Below, one piece after another: positions 33,793 through 42,369 of a stretch of 44,015 nucleotides of DNA. This DNA is from Thermoplasmatota archaeon (GTDB taxonomy: Archaea > Thermoplasmatota > Penumbrarchaeia > Penumbrarchaeales > Penumbrarchaeaceae). Within the stretch, counting starts at the first letter, position 1. The number at the start of each line of letters is the position of its first letter. The DNA is taken from contig JBLIRI010000002.1 in the NCBI GenBank assembly GCA_049472235.1, positions 1 to 44,015 on the forward strand, in the 5' to 3' direction. Under the pieces are notes generated by a model. That model was not told the origin of the DNA. It saw nothing but the letters and a program-made list of their open reading frames with translations, and did no database searches. The position numbers were made by a program, and so were the translations under genes.

Positions 33793-36700
33793 ATGGGATG
33801 GCGAGCCAAAAGCGTCCTCACATGCTTGGTCCTGATGCTTCTCATAGGCATTCCAGTGATCGGAACCGCTGACGGGACCGAGGAGGAACAACAGGTCCAG
33901 GGTGCCCCCCCATCAAGAAGCCTTGTAACGATCCCCAAGGAGCATCTCAGGATAATCTCCGGAGGGATCTCGCAGTGGGGCCCCTACTGTCTCGGGATCG
34001 TCAACAGAACGACCTCCATCGAGCTGAAATTGAAGAACACGGCTGACGCTCCATTTACGGGAATACAGGTGGACCTGACCTTGTACTGGTACGATGCTCA
34101 CAAGGGCTTTTCCTTCGATAAGGGCCGGATCATGTACAAGGACCAGACAATGGTTTCCATCTTGCCGGGGGACGGGACCCTTTCGGAGCTGATCAGGTTC
34201 AAATGGGTTCCGAAATTTGCCGGCGCCTATGTCATGAACATCACCATAAAACTGCCAGGGGACCCGCGGCCCTACACCAACAGGACGTTGATCGCCGGTC
34301 TCCAGTATACCCTGGACCAGAGATCGATAACAGATGGCCTATGGGTGGGGACAGATTTCTGGAATGGGTCCTCTATGGATGGTTGGACATCTGAATCGGA
34401 CCAGGGTGAGGAAGGGATGGAATGGCATATCAGCGATCATGCCCTGGCCAGAGGCTATGAGACGCTGCATACGCCTGAAACGGCATACTGGGTCGGGAAC
34501 GATTCTTCGGGATCATCTCCCCGGACGGGAACATATTCCCTGATCTCGCCCCCAATGGACCTGACCGGGTTCAATCCCGATTCCTGGGACAGTTTCCTGG
34601 GAACGAGCAGACCACAGATATATTTCCTGTACAAGTTCAGGGGCAATATCACCAAGGAGGGAATATCCGGCGGCGGCGGGATATACCATTTCATAAGGTC
34701 CCGCAGCAATGGTGAATGGGAGCCCTGGGAGCCCCTTTTGGACCCGAAGGGTGAATGGATCAATCTCACGGGAAATACCACCAATGTCATCTGGGACCTG
34801 TCAAAGAGACCCTTTCTCCAGGGAGACCTGGAATTCATCGGCATCGATCTCGGGGAATACCAGGGAAGGACCGTCCAGATCAAGTTCGAGTATCATCCTT
34901 CCGGATATCCGGAACCGGGCTATGTGATCGATGACCTGCTCCTGATAGGCAAAGAGACGGTCGACATCGAACCGTTCTACATCGAATCCTTCACCGATGA
35001 GGTTCTCAGGTCCGACCCGGGTGAACCTCTGGGATTTGACCTGAAAGTCGTATCCAAGCTCAAGACCACCGATGATGAGGTCTCGATCCGGGTGGAGGCC
35101 ATCGAGGGTTCGGACTTCATCGACCTGTTCCGTGATGTGGTCATCGAGCCAGGGATACTGTCGCTCCCCAGGTCCTCGACAACTCCATCGACGATCTCGA
35201 TCACACTCATGCTTCCCCCATCATCCCCTTCGGGAGAGGGTTGGCTGAAGGTCAGGATATTCGGAAGCGGCACCATCAAGGAGGTTTCCTTCCGATTCAT
35301 CGTGAATTCCAGAAGGTCTCTGGACCTCTCGGTCGAGGGAAGGACATCCACCACACTTGAACCCGGAGTTCCCGAGAACCTCCAGGTCTCTGTCCACAAT
35401 GAGGGGAATGTGGAAGAGTACGTTCATCTGACCTTCATTACCGGTACCGATCTTGCAGCGGAAGGCAAGATGGGGTCCTTCTCGCTTGTGCCGGACGAGA
35501 TCATGACCACCTCGATCGCCATATCAGTTCCTCTGGATTCTCTGGCAGGAGAGAAATCCGGCTACATAGTTGTCTCGAGGTCCGCCCTCCCGGCAAATGC
35601 TATCGACATTATCGAGGAGGAGCCCAATCCGGGGTGGTCATTCATCAGGCTCGATCATTTCGTGGGACATGTGTTTGACCTCGAGTTCATCGATCCTTCT
35701 CCGGCCGCCATCTATTATGAGATCGAGAATCCTCCAAAGAACGGCACCTTGGAGGTCCCATTTCACCTGATCCTGGCTAATAAGGGTAATTCCAGGGATG
35801 TGCCGATCTTCTTCAGCCCTGGTTGGACGGACAGGGACGACATAGCACTTGTTCTGCCGGAGAATGAATCGATCGATCCGGGCTCCACCAAATTCGTGAA
35901 CATCACCGTGAAGGTAACATTCCCCGTACCCGACGGGATATATCAGTTCAATGTTCAGGCAACCTCTTCGGGAAGCGAGGAAATCAAGACCGAAATGATC
36001 ACCCTTACACTCTCCATCGGCGGAGCCCCGGTCTCAAGCGGCATTTACCTCGTAAATGGCTCTCTGGAACTTCAACCGGCAAGGGCAGTGCTTGGCCAGG
36101 ATGTGGTAATATCCTTCACCGTGCGGTCCTTTGGATTCCTGGAGGATGATAGCTTCACCTCTCTGATACAGCTCAATAATCTGGAGATCAACCAACCGTA
36201 TCTGATATCCCGTTATCAAGACAAGGTATGCCAGCTGACCTGGAGGTTCGATCAGCCCGGGAGTGTCCGGCTTAGGATAAGTCTTCCGGATTGGAAAGAC
36301 CCTCCACCCGGGGCCGTCGAACTGGTATCCTCTCTGGAAAGGTATATTGACGTTGGTTTTATCGACCTTAACATCACGAAGGTCCAGCTCATTAAGGAGA
36401 ATGGGGATGAGGCCCAGGGTGAGGTTCGACCGGGCGTTCACGAGTTCTCGGTGAACCTGAGCAATAACGGGAATGCGACTGCGGACATTTTCGCACTTTC
36501 GCTGACGGTGGAGGACATGTCAACGGGAACGTGGTTGAACCTCACACTTAACGTGACCGACCTTGGACCAGGAGAGATCAGGAACCTGACATTCAAGAAC
36601 ATCTTGCTCCAGCAGGAAAGGGTCTACTTCTTCACGATAGCCGTTGATAATAATGGAAGATGGGAGGATATGGACCTCACCAATGACCAGAAGGAGCAAG

Positions 36701-36831
36701 AGGTGGAAGTGGGGACGGTTCCTCCCGAACTGCCCGCGTGGAGGAACGACCTATGGTTGGTGGTGGGCTTCATGATCACCCTCATCCTGACAGTGGGGCT
36801 TCTTCTTTACATGCTCAGGAAGAAGTTGTGA
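33793..36831 (+). CDS. very large surface protein: signal-anchor, MAM/choice-of-anchor-J-like jelly-roll, multiple CARDB-like beta-sandwich domains, C-terminal TM
   Basis: 1012 aa. GWTSES...WHISD...YSLISPPMDL...VQIKFEYH...GYVIDDLLLIG is jelly-roll-like. CARDB-like VSVHNEGNVEEYVHLTF and FSVNLSNNGNATADIF...LGPGEIRNLTF. TM LWLVVGFMITLILTVGLLLYML. Confidence 0.75.
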   Translation: MGWRAKSVLTCLVLMLLIGIPVIGTADGTEEEQQVQGAPPSRSLVTIPKEHLRIISGGISQWGPYCLGIVNRTTSIELKLKNTADAPFTGIQVDLTLYWYDAHKGFSFDKGRIMYKDQTMVSILPGDGTLSELIRFKWVPKFAGAYVMNITIKLPGDPRPYTNRTLIAGLQYTLDQRSITDGLWVGTDFWNGSSMDGWTSESDQGEEGMEWHISDHALARGYETLHTPETAYWVGNDSSGSSPRTGTYSLISPPMDLTGFNPDSWDSFLGTSRPQIYFLYKFRGNITKEGISGGGGIYHFIRSRSNGEWEPWEPLLDPKGEWINLTGNTTNVIWDLSKRPFLQGDLEFIGIDLGEYQGRTVQIKFEYHPSGYPEPGYVIDDLLLIGKETVDIEPFYIESFTDEVLRSDPGEPLGFDLKVVSKLKTTDDEVSIRVEAIEGSDFIDLFRDVVIEPGILSLPRSSTTPSTISITLMLPPSSPSGEGWLKVRIFGSGTIKEVSFRFIVNSRRSLDLSVEGRTSTTLEPGVPENLQVSVHNEGNVEEYVHLTFITGTDLAAEGKMGSFSLVPDEIMTTSIAISVPLDSLAGEKSGYIVVSRSALPANAIDIIEEEPNPGWSFIRLDHFVGHVFDLEFIDPSPAAIYYEIENPPKNGTLEVPFHLILANKGNSRDVPIFFSPGWTDRDDIALVLPENESIDPGSTKFVNITVKVTFPVPDGIYQFNVQATSSGSEEIKTEMITLTLSIGGAPVSSGIYLVNGSLELQPARAVLGQDVVISFTVRSFGFLEDDSFTSLIQLNNLEINQPYLISRYQDKVCQLTWRFDQPGSVRLRISLPDWKDPPPGAVELVSSLERYIDVGFIDLNITKVQLIKENGDEAQGEVRPGVHEFSVNLSNNGNATADIFALSLTVEDMSTGTWLNLTLNVTDLGPGEIRNLTFKNILLQQERVYFFTIAVDNNGRWEDMDLTNDQKEQEVEVGTVPPELPAWRNDLWLVVGFMITLILTVGLLLYMLRKKL

Positions 36832-36937
36832 AGGCTACCCGGCGGACAGCCGCTCATCATTTCCCGACCCGGGCCCCGTCTCTTGTAAAAATTCATATAC
36901 TGGGTGGCATTTCGAGGTCTCTCTGATATCTGCCAAA

Positions 36938-36949
36938 CATATATATACC
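36938..36949 (+). promoter_or_regulatory. TATA-like box upstream of the str cluster
   Basis: CATATATATACC lies about 45-55 nt upstream of the uS12 ATG. Confidence 0.35.
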
Positions 36950-36993
36950 AGGTTCAAGTAACCCCCGCAGGTATCCAACAGGAGTGTTCCCAT

Positions 36994-37422
36994 ATGGCAA
37001 AGGGACTGTTTACGGCTAGAAAGTTGAGAAAGGACGCCCAGAAGAAACGGTGGAACGACCGCTATTACAAAAGGCGCGTCCTGAAGCTCAAGGAGAGATC
37101 GGACCCCCTTCAGGGCAGCGCCCAGGCAAGAGGTATAGTCCTAGAGAAGGTCGGAGTGGAGGCCAAGCAGCCCAACTCTGCCATCAGGAAATGCGTCAAG
37201 ATCCAGCTGATCAAGAACGGAAGGCAGATAACTGCTTTCGCCCCCGGCAACGGAGCGATCAACTTCATAGACGAGCACGATGAGGTTATGGTCGAGGGTA
37301 TCGGCGGTCGTCTGGGCCGTTCCTACGGTGACATTCCCGGGGTCAGATACAAGGTGATCAAGGTCAACAGCGTTTCCCTCGATGAGATGGTAAGAGGAAG
37401 GAAGGAGAAACCTGTCCGCTGA
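36994..37422 (+). CDS. rps12: 30S ribosomal protein uS12
   Basis: 142 aa. Motifs: [44 protein letters not shown]. Start moved from track 36904 to ATG 36994. Confidence 0.95.
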
Positions 37423-37436
37423 ATGGAGGATTCAAA

Positions 37437-38420
37437 ATGGCCCCGAAGAAGAAGGAAGAGGTCTCTGAAGAAACTGCCCAGGCAGTCGAGGAGAAGCAGG
37501 AAGAGACCGAGGTCAAGGTCGAGGAAACACCGAAGAAGAAGACCTCGAGAAAGACCAAGAAGGAAGAGATAAAGGAACAACCGGTCAAGGAAGAGGAGCC
37601 CCCGGCGGAAAGCGAGATGCAGGAAGCCGAGCAGGAAGCAAAGGAAGAGGCCAAGACCGAAGATATTCCCCAGGAGCCGGAAAAGGTCGAGGCCGGGGAA
37701 CCCGAGGAGGTCTCGGAGGATGTGGAGGAGGCTCCCAAAGAGGATATCGATGAAGCCCCGGCCGAAGAGGTCCCTGAGGAGCCGTCGGAGGAAGAGGGCT
37801 CGAAGGAGCCTGCAAAGAAGAGGTCTACCAAGAAGTCAAAGGAGGAAGGCCCATTCCCGGAGGACCTGGTTTTCGGAAGGTACAATTCCAAGGAGGTCGT
37901 GGTGGAGGACCCGAGCCTGAAGGCCTTCATCAACCTCGATCCGTCCTATGTTCCCCATTCAAGTGCCAGGCATGCCAACAAACCTTTTCACAAGCACAAG
38001 ATATCGATCGTTGAGAGGCTCATCAACAACATGATGCGGACCGAGAAGTATACCGGAAAGAAGACGAAGAGCTACAAGGCGGTGCTTGATGCCTTCCAGC
38101 TGATAGAGAAAAGGACCAAGGAGAACCCGGTCCAGGTTCTCGTCAGGGCCATCGAGAACTGCGCTCCCAGGGAAGAGGTTACAAGGCTCAAGTTCGGCGG
38201 GATCTCCGTTCCGAAGGCCGTCGATACCGCCCCCACAAGAAGGCTGGACATAGCCCTCCGCAACATCTCGATCGGCACGGTGAAAGCATCCCACAAGAAC
38301 AAGAAATCCATATCCGAGTGCCTGGCCGCGGAGCTGATAGCCGCCTCAAAGGGGGATATCCAGAGCTTTGCGGTCTCCAAGAGGGACGAGGTCGAGAGGG
38401 TAGCGAAATCGGCCCATTGA
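37437..38420 (+). CDS. rps7: 30S ribosomal protein uS7 with a ~140-aa KE/P-rich N-terminal extension
   Basis: 327 aa with GGAGGA 7 nt upstream. The canonical archaeal uS7 core starts near LVFGRYNSKEVVVEDPSLKAFINL and ends FAVSKRDEVERVAKSAH. No alternative start lies near the core. Confidence 0.9.
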   Translation: MAPKKKEEVSEETAQAVEEKQEETEVKVEETPKKKTSRKTKKEEIKEQPVKEEEPPAESEMQEAEQEAKEEAKTEDIPQEPEKVEAGEPEEVSEDVEEAPKEDIDEAPAEEVPEEPSEEEGSKEPAKKRSTKKSKEEGPFPEDLVFGRYNSKEVVVEDPSLKAFINLDPSYVPHSSARHANKPFHKHKISIVERLINNMMRTEKYTGKKTKSYKAVLDAFQLIEKRTKENPVQVLVRAIENCAPREEVTRLKFGGISVPKAVDTAPTRRLDIALRNISIGTVKASHKNKKSISECLAAELIAASKGDIQSFAVSKRDEVERVAKSAH

Positions 38421-38470
38421 TGCAGATGAAGAGAACATGATGCCATAAAATAGCCCCAGAGTTGGTGAGT

Positions 38471-40672
38471 ATGGGAAGAAGAGAAGATAATATCAGAGAA
38501 GCCCAGAAGATCATGGACAAGCCCACGTTCATCAGGAACATCGGAATCGTGGCGCATATTGATCACGGCAAGACAACACTTTCCGACAACCTGATCGCAG
38601 GCGCCGGGATGATGTCGGAAGAACTTGCCGGAAAGCAGCTTCTTCTGGACTTCGATGAGCAGGAGCAGGCGAGGGGTATCACGATCAATGCGGCGAACGC
38701 ATCCATGGTCCACCAGTACTAGGGTGAGAACCACCTGATCAATCTCATCGATACCCCGGGCCTCGTCGATTTCGGCGGTGATGTCACAAGGGCGATGAGG
38801 GCCGTCGACGGATGTGTCATTGTGACCTGCGCCGTCGAGGGTGTCATGCCCCAGACCGAAACAGTGATAAGGCAGGCACTTAAGGAGAAGGTCAAACCGG
38901 TACTCTTCATCAACAAGGTGGACCGTCTGATAAACGAACTCAAGGTTACCCCGGAGGAGATGCAGAAGAGGTTCGTCAAGATAATCAAGCACGTCAACGA
39001 CCTCGTGACGAAGATGGTCCCGCCCGAGTTCAGGGGAAAATGGTTCATGACCCCCGAGAACGGAACCGTAGCCTTCGGGTCAGCCTATCATAACTGGGCG
39101 ATCTCGGTGCCCTACATGCAGAAGCAGGGAGTGACCTTCAAGGACATCTACGATTATCTGAACCAGGGAAGGCAGAAGGAACTTGCCAAGAAAGCTCCGC
39201 TCCATCAGGTGCTTCTTGATATGATAATCAAGCATCTTCCGAATCCCTTTGATGCTCAGAAGTACAGGATCCCCCACATATGGCACGGGGACGAAGGGTC
39301 CGACATCGGAAAGGCCATGGTGAGCTGTTCTCCGAGGTCCGAACCTGTGTTGATGGTCACCAAGATCATCATCGATCCGCATGCCGGAGAGATCGCCTCG
39401 GGAAGACTTTTTGCTGGCTCCATCGAGAGGGGCCAGGAACTCTATGTGAGCGGTATGCCCGGAGTGGCAAGGGCCCAGGCGGTCTCGGTAGCGGTCGGTC
39501 CGGACAGGATCACGGTGGATAAGGCCATAGCGGGAAATATCGTCATGGTCTCTGGTCTGAAGTCGGCCATTGCCGGTTCGACCGTTTCAGGATTGCAGGA
39601 GATCGATGCCTTCGAAAAGATAGTGCATGTCTCGGAACCCGTGGTCACCGTGGCGGTGGAGGCAAAGCATATGAAGGACCTCCCCAAGCTCGTGGAGGTT
39701 CTCAGGATGGTCGCAAAGGCGGATCCTTCACTGAAGGTGGAGATAAACCAGGAGACCGGGGAGCACCTTCTCTCGGGTATGGGCGAACTTCACCTCGAGA
39801 TCACCGAATACAGGATACAGAAGGAGCAGGGGATCGAGATCAAGACCTCCCCGCCCATTGTTGTTTACAGGGAAACGATCCTCAAGAGGTCCGAGAGGGA
39901 GTTCGAGGGAAAGTCTCCGAACAAGCACAACAGGTTCTATTTCAGAGTGGAGCCCCTGCCCGAGGCAGTGGTCAACGCGATCAGGTCCGGAGAGGTGGCT
40001 TCCGACGAGAGGATCAAGGACGCCAAGGCCATGGCCAAGCAGCTTGAAGGTCTCGGCATGGACAAGGATGACGTCAAGCATGTCTACTGGATATGCGGCT
40101 CCAACATCTTCCTCAACTGTACCAAAGGTATCCAGTACCTCCACGAGACCAGGGAGCTTCTAATAGACGCTTTCAAGGAGGCCATGACCAAGGGACCAAG
40201 GGCGTGGGAACCCTGCATGGGTGTATGCGTCAAGCTGATGGATGCCAAACTTCACGAGGACACTATCCACAGAGGTCCGGGTCAGGTCATACCGGCCGGA
40301 AGGTCCGGCATATACGGTGCCATGGTGGAGGCATCCACCACCCTTCTGGAGCCGAAGCAGAAGCTCTTCGTTTCGGTACCCAACGAGCTCATGGGCGGCG
40401 TCAACCGTGAACTGAACTCGAGAAGGTGCACCATCGAGGATATGCCAATGGAAGGCGACCAGGTCACAATAATTGCCGCGGCTCCGGTTTCGGAGCTCTT
40501 CGGCTTTGCCGGTGCGATAAGGGGAGCCACCCAGGGAAGGGCCCTCTGGACGACCGAATTCCTGGGCTTCAGCCCGATACCAAGGGAGCTTCTGGATAAT
40601 GCCACAAGGGAGATCAGAACAAGGAAAGGTCTGAAACCGGATCCGCCCACCGCTGATTACTATGCGGCCTGA
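38471..40672 (+). CDS. fusA: elongation factor 2 (aEF-2), interrupted by an in-frame TAG at 38720-38722; formally a pseudogene under the standard code
   Basis: [36 protein letters not shown] ... [48 protein letters not shown] ... NKVDR ... [11 protein letters not shown] (diphthamide His). Track ORFs 38462..38722 and 38795..40672 are in the same frame. Confidence 0.9.
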
Positions 40673-40746: not shown

Positions 40747-42024
40747 ATGGCAGCAGAAAAACCCCATATGAACCTCGTATTCATCGGTCACGTCGACCAT
40801 GGTAAGTCAACCTCCGTGGGGAGGATCCTACTGGATACGGGGCATGTAGAGAAACATCTGATAGAAAAGTACAGGAAGCAGGCTGACGAGAAGGGAAAGG
40901 CGACCTTTGAGTTCGCTTGGGTCATGGACAGTTTGAAGGAAGAGAGGGAGCGCGGTGTGACCATCGACGTTTCCCACAAGCGGTTCGACACCGACAAGTT
41001 CTACTTCACCGTCATAGACGCACCTGGCCACAGGGATTTCGTCAAGAACATGATCACCGGAACATCCCAGGCCGATGCCGCGGTTCTCGTGGTTGCGGCC
41101 CCGGAGGGTGTCATGGCCCAGACAAAGGAACACGTCTTCCTTGCAAAGACCCTTGGAGTGAACCAGATCATCATAAACGTGAACAAGATGGACGCCACCA
41201 AGCCTGAATACAGCCAGGAAAGGTTCAATCAGGTCAAGGAGGACGTCGGCAAGCTCCTCAGGATGGTCGGATACAAGGACGATATGGTCCAGTTCGTCCC
41301 GAGCTCGGCATTCCTCGGCGACAACGTCGTGACCAAGAGCGGTAAGATGAGCTGGTGGTCCGGACCGACACTCCTGCAGTGTCTTGACAACCTTCAGATC
41401 CCACAGAAGCCCACCGAGCTTCCCCTCAGGCTACCGGTCCAGGACGTCTATACCATCACCGGTATCGGGACCGTCCCTGTGGGCAGGGTCGAGACTGGTA
41501 TCCTCAAGGTTGGGGACACTGTCGTGTTCTCCCCTTCGGGAGCCGGCGGCGAGGTCAAGACCATCGAGATGCATCACGAGACAATGCCCAAGGCGGAGCC
41601 CGGCGACAACGTGGGCTTCAACGTCAGGGGCGTCGGAAAGAACGATATCAGGAGAGGAGATGTCTGCGGGACCTCGGCCTCCAAGCCGACCGTGGCCAAG
41701 GCATTCACCGCCCAGATAGCAGTTCTCCAGCACCCGTCCGTGATAGCGGTCGGATACACTCCGGTGTTCCACCTTCACACCGCCCAGGTGGCCTGCACCT
41801 TCGAGGAGATCCTTAAGAAGCTGGACCCCAAGACCGGCCAGGTCAAGGAGGAGAACCCGCAGTTCCTGAAGACGGGCGACATCGCCTTCGTCAAGATCAC
41901 GCCGACAAAGCCACTGGTCATCGAGACTGCCAAGGAATACCCACAGCTCGGAAGGTTCGCCATCCGCGATATGGGGACCACCGTCGCTGCAGGCATGTGC
42001 CTTGACATCGAGAAGAAGGAGTAA
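40747..42024 (+). CDS. tuf: elongation factor 1-alpha (aEF-1A)
   Basis: 425 aa. Motifs: [27 protein letters not shown] lies upstream. Confidence 0.95.
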
Positions 42025-42051: not shown

Positions 42052-42369
42052 ATGGGATTGGTAGCAAAGGCCAGGATATCGTTGACGGGAACGGACGCAA
42101 AATCCCTTGACGGCGTCTGCAGTCAGATAAAACAGATCTCTGAAAGGACCGGAGTGAACCTCTCCGGGCCGATCCCGCTCCCCACAAAAAGGCTTGTGGT
42201 GCCCTGCAGGAAGTCCCCGGACGGCGAAGGTTCCGAGACCTGGGACCGCTGGGAGATGAGGGTCCACAAGAGGCTGATATATCTCGATGCCGACGATCGG
42301 GCGCTTAGGTCCCTTATGAGGATCAAGGTCCCCGATGATGTCAACATCGAGATCGTACTGAGAAGCTGA
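42052..42369 (+). CDS. rps10: 30S ribosomal protein uS10
   Basis: 105 aa. Motifs: [40 protein letters not shown]. Confidence 0.95.

Follow-up and report, generated by a model that had tools for sequence, protein, structure and literature searches.

A leucine at the switch-II histidine position of an archaeal elongation factor 2, close to an in-frame TAG, is probably a local sequence error

The loss of the catalytic histidine of switch II has been described in bacterial EF-G. In Escherichia coli, the H91A substitution renders EF-G unable to hydrolyse GTP, slows translocation by a factor of up to 30 and traps the protein on the ribosome (Cunha et al., 2013, PMC4718068), and the other substitutions of this residue, in a study of H91A, H91R, H91E and H91Q, impair hydrolysis or phosphate release (PMC4532990). 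Moreover, bacteria have EF-G paralogs, of the EFG II or EF-G2 type and related subfamilies, in which the catalytic histidine is naturally lacking (Margus, Remm and Tenson, 2011, PMC3150367). Local assembly errors that lack read support are, for their part, a documented property of metagenome-assembled genomes (Chen et al., 2020, PMC7111523).

The archaeal gene described here lies in a window (the whole stretch of DNA analysed, 44,015 nt) corresponding to contig 17 of a 1.93-Mb Thermoplasmatota bin of 104 contigs and 65% completeness. It encodes archaeal elongation factor 2 (EF-2) and extends over 38471..40672 on the forward strand, with 733 codons followed by a TGA stop and, in the translation, a TAG inside the frame at codon 84. 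A Shine-Dalgarno-like GGTGA box is found immediately 5' of the ATG at 38471. Against the aEF-2 equivalog model TIGR00490, the product gives a full-length match (residues 4-723) of 1115 bits, the cut-off being 738. The G1/P-loop AHIDHGKTT (38552..38578), the RGITI of switch I (G2; 38672..38686) and the G4 motif NKVD (38912..38923) are all intact on the forward strand. The same is true of His600 (40268..40270, forward strand), located in a stretch of 11 residues at the tip of domain IV, which we take, from established knowledge of a/eEF-2, to be the diphthamide-acceptor position. From a genomic perspective, the gene is embedded in the str-operon order uS12-uS7-EF-2-EF-1alpha-uS10, all on the forward strand: uS12 (36904-37422) and uS7 (37437-38420), both recognized by Pfam (PF00164 and PF00177 for the pair), stand upstream, with uS7 adjoining EF-2, while EF-1alpha (40747-42024) adjoins it downstream and is followed by uS10 (42052-42369). 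No other EF-2 occurs in the 65%-complete assembly, and we take this copy for the canonical aEF-2 of the str operon and the only one of the organism.

Some features of the neighbourhood can be recorded in passing. The uS7 gene has 327 codons and its Pfam S7 domain begins only at residue 171, which indicates a long N-terminal extension; of the relatives' loci compared, only three gave a full-length match to it. Directly 5' of uS12 there is an ORF of 1012 aa (33793-36831) with only a weak match to a CARDB domain, presumably a surface protein. The genes rpoB, rpoA' and rpoA'' sit on another contig of the bin (C29) and not upstream of uS12.

Within this otherwise ordinary gene, three codons depart from the relatives. 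The first is CTC (Leu98) at 38762..38764, forward strand, in DTPGLVDF, at the position of the catalytic histidine of switch II (G3), where all relatives carry CAC or CAT. The second is the in-frame TAG of codon 84 (38720..38722, forward strand), which corresponds mostly to AAG or AAA (Lys) in relatives of the same genus, in a column that is variable. The third is GTG (Val27) at 38549..38551, forward strand, just before the P-loop, where the 29 relatives have alanine without exception, making A27V a singleton. The G3 of this EF-2 is thus DTPGL instead of DxPGH, so that the motif set of a translational GTPase is incomplete, and its frame is interrupted, as opposed to the uninterrupted EF-2 frames of all relatives. 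An earlier reading of the DNA letters (hereafter the sequence-only reading) had reported the leucine codon, its distance of one nucleotide from CAC, its position 14 codons downstream of the TAG and the DAPGHRDF of the EF-1alpha encoded in the same window; each of these observations stands, bases and translation being in agreement and codons 98 and 84 being counted in the frame from the ATG at 38471. Both TAG84 and CTC98 can be derived from the relatives' codons by a single A-to-T change, the two changes being 43 nt apart. The same reading placed both of them at the most constrained spots of the gene, which holds for the histidine, whose column is invariant, and not for codon 84, whose column contains K, E, Q, N, G, H and Y among the relatives, with a stop in none of them.

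In an alignment of 30 sequences, the only departures of the window from columns invariant elsewhere are A27V and H98L, to which TAG84 is added. Val27, TAG84 and Leu98 are all confined to codons 27-98, that is, to 215 nt (38549-38764), and the remaining 635 codons show none. In the RpoA' of the same bin, 888 codons contain no such singleton. EF-1alpha has two, A76S (40972-40974) and I89V (41011-41013), in columns that are invariant in 23 relatives; both are conservative, fall close to switch I and switch II of the G domain and may be either real lineage-specific changes or further base errors.

The comparison of orthologs proposed in the sequence-only reading goes against a variant EF-2, since the sister genomes have CAC or CAT: His98 is found in 29 of 29 relatives, including those as close as 95% amino-acid identity, within the same genus. 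In a wider set, 235 of 240 database sequences or fragments of archaeal EF-2 with the motif have histidine; three more are without the motif, and the only other non-His cases are a fragment that stops at the motif and a sequence that no longer resembles EF-2 beyond it. A single EF-2 locus was found in 38 of 40 related genomes, including all 15 that are at least 90% complete, and the two EF-2 matches of one relative (G021) represent a single gene split between two contigs. Neither an internal stop nor an EF-2 paralog was found in the 38 relatives with an EF-2 match. The search for an additional canonical EF-2 was likewise negative in the 65%-complete assembly, with one locus per relative. Furthermore, the gene shares 87% nucleotide and 95% amino-acid identity with that of the nearest species, and dN/dS between the two is 0.026 for a dS of 0.85, a pair of normal orthologs giving 0.019. 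The dN/dS check suggested in the sequence-only reading thus shows no relaxation of selection: EF-2 has been under full purifying selection, which implies that the defects are either evolutionarily instantaneous or not biological at all. An N-terminal part acquired as a chimera from another species was also considered and discarded, as the sliding-window identity is flat along the gene and the nearest relative never switches.

Independent evidence on the local sequence comes from public runs. Those containing it are marine-sediment, mangrove and other sediment metagenomes; only assembled contigs (Logan) were aligned to the region. The two runs in which it is best represented, X1 and X3, are two samples of one study and may not be those from which the bin was assembled. 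The only near-identical contigs over the stretch, in these two runs, cover 38458-38773 (depth 4.5) and 38520-38770 (depth 2.4). In both, codon 27 is GCC (Ala) and codon 84, with A at 38720, is AAG (Lys), and a T at 38720 occurs in no contig of X1 or X3. Each of them has seven differences from the window, six of which are listed in a table that omits differences near contig ends. The unlisted seventh must for this reason fall in about 38748-38770, an interval of 23 nt that contains 38763, and it may be the difference at this very base, which is inferred from the contigs and not read in them. Five of the differences are clustered in a patch of 16 nt (38545-38560), four of them synonymous, the patch including GCC (Ala27) in the contigs versus GTG (Val) in the window. 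This patch encodes an ultra-conserved motif of 14 residues common to many community members, and its origin may lie in strain variation or in a chimeric route taken through the assembly graph. Because the X1 and X3 contigs differ at four synonymous sites too, they could belong to a sister strain instead of being the bin's own.

Over the rest of the gene, contigs identical to the window are present at a depth of about 2.4-5 and others differ from it by 2-6%, which points to a low-coverage organism coexisting with close strains. Neither ORF piece (625 aa and 83 aa) has its exact product on record in public assemblies, the best match to short N-terminal EF-2 fragments of the same strain in a protein collection had only 89% identity, and the local sequence, with N at both sites, had no match among JGI metagenome contigs in either of two scans.

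Taken together, three one-off defects within 215 nt of an otherwise conserved essential gene, in a low-coverage bin, are most likely a local sequence error, and we regard Leu98 as the probable outcome of an error in the consensus or in the assembly. A localized sequence error was one of the options offered by the sequence-only reading, and it is the one favoured by the 215-nt cluster, by purifying selection and by contigs that are canonical at two of the three sites. As for the mechanism, the organism is present at only about 2-5x depth in the samples that contain it, amid near-identical strains and many other organisms sharing the ultra-conserved motifs of the G domain, and the assembler would most likely have put this stretch together from a single read, or a handful at most, of poor quality or minority origin. 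In that case both A-to-T changes, separated by 43 nt, would probably derive from the same read or read pair, and the living population would encode Lys84 and His98 like all relatives.

How frequently the same change is encountered was estimated by scanning about 185,000 genomes, one per species, for I-D-T-P-G-L(CTN)-V-D-F, which gave 40 loci. Three of these (L097, L098 and L108) are not EF-G, LepA or EF-2 genes. Ten are canonical EF-G or LepA genes with a lone leucine, encoded by CTC in nine cases and by CTT in one, in every case one A-to-T step from histidine; where full-length, they pass the cut-off of TIGR00484 (EF-G) or TIGR01393 (LepA). All ten (L076, L077, L082, L085, L086, L091, L102, L105, L107 and L110) come from metagenome bins and none from an isolate, and in at least two of them the site is no more than 60 nt away from the end of a contig. 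A recurrent artefact of assembly or sequencing at the GGN-CAC-GTN motif could be responsible. Given that the same lone defect is sporadic in the essential or near-universal translational GTPases of bins, meeting one is to be expected when very many windows are inspected. About 25 further loci are EF-G-like paralogs with IDTPGLVDF, a divergent G domain, HSL in switch I and a leucine mostly encoded by CTG. These are GTDB species representatives (L074, L079-L081, L083, L084, L087-L090, L092-L096, L099-L101, L103, L104, L106, L109 and L111-L113), mostly from Phycisphaerales and other Planctomycetota, with some from Chlorobiaceae, Myxococcota/Bradymonadia, Fermentibacteria/Aegiribacteria and a gammaproteobacterium; the NCBIfam models that fit them best, PRK13351 and PRK12740, are named 'elongation factor G', and they may belong to the EFG II or spdEFG subfamilies of Margus et al. 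(2011). The leucine is conserved in these EF-G-like paralogs and can thus be a stable natural state there.

Other genes broken by a single stop were sought throughout the bin on the basis of coding potential, which yielded 39 candidate junctions. The check covered all 16 with TAG and 22 of the 23 with TGA, the remaining one being inside the window; the Pfam scan covered 14 TAG junctions besides that of EF-2 and the 22 TGA junctions, and a TAG junction between two KaiC-like genes of the window was taken, without a scan, as the boundary of adjacent genes. Only three junctions, including that of EF-2, are true interruptions, and all three are TAG; among the candidates checked, no gene is interrupted by TGA or TAA. 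One of the other two is a gene for a MarC-family membrane protein (L042; C85:1485-2402, reverse strand), with TAG at C85:1803-1805, a position of conserved Lys at which the six relatives compared carry Lys, encoded by AAG in five of them, or Arg. The other encodes an Ig-like surface protein of 915 aa (L038; C42:11749-14499, reverse strand), with TAG at C42:12283-12285 and CAG (Gln) in a 92%-identical ortholog. No clustered differences surround either TAG. With the codon usage of this genome, 56% of random nonsense substitutions would produce TAG, so that three of three (p about 0.17) is unremarkable and compatible with random substitutions. The two additional genes, interrupted at a Lys and a Gln site, leave room for a TAG-specific process, and three interruptions are too few to tell such a process from chance. 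An apparent in-frame TGA in the RpoA' of three relatives was dismissed, as it belongs to the preceding gene, whose stop codon falls at the margin of the match.

The explanation that comes next in order is that of a real and very recent loss-of-function allele, carried by a minority lineage of this slow-growing sediment archaeon or by the DNA of dead cells, whose haplotype was picked by the assembler. In fact, near-identical strains do coexist in the samples, with contigs at 100% identity or differing by 2-6%, the mostly synonymous patch at 38545-38560 resembles real strain variation more than read error, and two further genes of the bin have in-frame TAGs. These observations speak for such an allele. 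Against it, EF-2 is essential, and it is single-copy in the assembly and in every relative searched, so that a cell with such an allele could not grow. By analogy with EF-G, a sole EF-2 with Leu98 and a stop at codon 84 would be unable to support growth: the equivalent His-to-Ala change of EF-G blocks GTP hydrolysis (PMC4718068). In addition, two disabling hits 43 nt apart, with nothing else in 2.2 kb, would be very unlikely as neutral decay. For these reasons, a real dead allele is regarded as rather unlikely.

A functional variant, as considered in the sequence-only reading, would require that TAG84 be read through, by pyrrolysine (Pyl) or a suppressor tRNA, and that the product act as a slow, non-hydrolysing translocase or as a regulatory ribosome-binding factor. 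The position of TAG84 fits such a view to some extent, since it replaces Lys in a variable loop and would suit a Lys derivative; a second in-frame TAG of the bin, in the MarC-family gene, is also at a conserved Lys, the rest of the EF-2 protein is intact and bacterial EF-G paralogs with a natural leucine at the exact position exist. Against it, the third in-frame TAG replaces Gln and not Lys, and, of 1452 long ORFs, 294 (about 20%) terminate in TAG, which is thus an ordinary stop here. The best PylS match in this genome reaches 34.7 bits with a cut-off of 178, PylD was not found in the 65%-complete bin and none of the 17 tRNAs detected in it has a CUA anticodon, although the incompleteness of the bin means that absence of the pyl machinery is not proven. 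Among 36 relatives of the same class no PylS exceeds the cut-off, and the sole true match comes from another family of the phylum. The features of a Pyl gene are also missing, as no EF-2 ortholog has an in-frame TAG and TAG is not depleted as a stop. A pyrrolysine reading of this TAG is therefore set aside on the PylS and PylD searches, the tRNA scan and the stop-codon usage.

As regards Leu98, neither it nor TAG84 is shared by any relative, even at 95% identity, which indicates no evolutionary persistence, and its codon CTC is one step from CAC, as against the CTG that prevails in natural Leu paralogs. The idea of a non-hydrolysing or regulatory EF-2 is consequently unsupported, the change being a singleton among 29 relatives within a 215-nt cluster, with canonical contigs, no paralog and no sign of TAG recoding, and we judge it very unlikely. 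Its boldest form, in which both T alleles are real and on one haplotype of a living sediment archaeon, whose only EF-2 would be produced by reading through TAG and would work without the catalytic histidine, appears to us extremely improbable. If true, it would mean an archaeon with a GTPase-impaired translocase, or with a factor parking ribosomes under extreme energy limitation; it would challenge the indispensability of ribosome-stimulated GTP hydrolysis by the translocase and imply stop-codon suppression in a lineage without known machinery, and the two further in-frame TAGs would hint at genome-wide amber suppression. A decaying spare copy, with the canonical EF-2 paralog hidden in the unassembled 35% of the genome, is conceivable only because the bin is 65% complete, and it is most improbable for a gene within the conserved uS12-uS7-EF-2-EF-1alpha-uS10 operon, with a single EF-2 locus in 38 of 38 relatives with a match (15 of 15 at 90% completeness or more) and a dN/dS without relaxation.

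If Leu98 and TAG84 are a local sequence error, as we favour, some practical consequences follow. This species-representative bin would have base-level defects in at least three genes, and annotation pipelines would split its EF-2 entry into two ORFs or mark it as a pseudogene. TAG84 should not be counted as evidence of recoding and, in view of the ten other bins with a lone change of the CAC-to-CTC type, the loss of a catalytic residue in a single bin needs read-level confirmation first.

The comparison with the known systems can be summarized as follows. With respect to the aEF-2 family (TIGR00490), the gene has the model match, G1, G2 and G4, the diphthamide histidine, the operon position and the 95% identity to the nearest species, and it differs in having PGL where the family has PGH and TAG at codon 84, neither change being found in any relative. 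The H91 mutants of E. coli EF-G are altered at the same switch-II position, with a residue that is unable to position the hydrolytic water, and by analogy with them the Leu98 protein, if made, would be expected to bind GTP, to hydrolyse it poorly or not at all, to translocate slowly and to stay on the ribosome; unlike the window gene, they are engineered bacterial proteins studied in vitro. The His-less EF-G paralogs have in common with it the sequence IDTPGLVDF, natural in about 25 species representatives. However, they are second copies beside a canonical EF-G, whereas the window gene is the sole copy (in a 65%-complete assembly); their G domain is divergent throughout and their change is conserved across clades, whereas the leucine of the window is found in 0 of 29 relatives; and their leucine codon is mostly CTG and not, as in the window, a CTC one base from histidine. 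The EF-G2 models score the gene far below their cut-offs (NF009377, 209 bits with a cut-off of 890; NF058620, 186 with a cut-off of 1000). As for the local assembly errors of metagenome-assembled genomes, in those cases the read support is absent, whereas here the base at 38763 can be deduced from the contigs only indirectly; what the locus shares with them is a short stretch of consensus that departs from an independent assembly of the same samples, a low coverage and a motif common to the members of the community.
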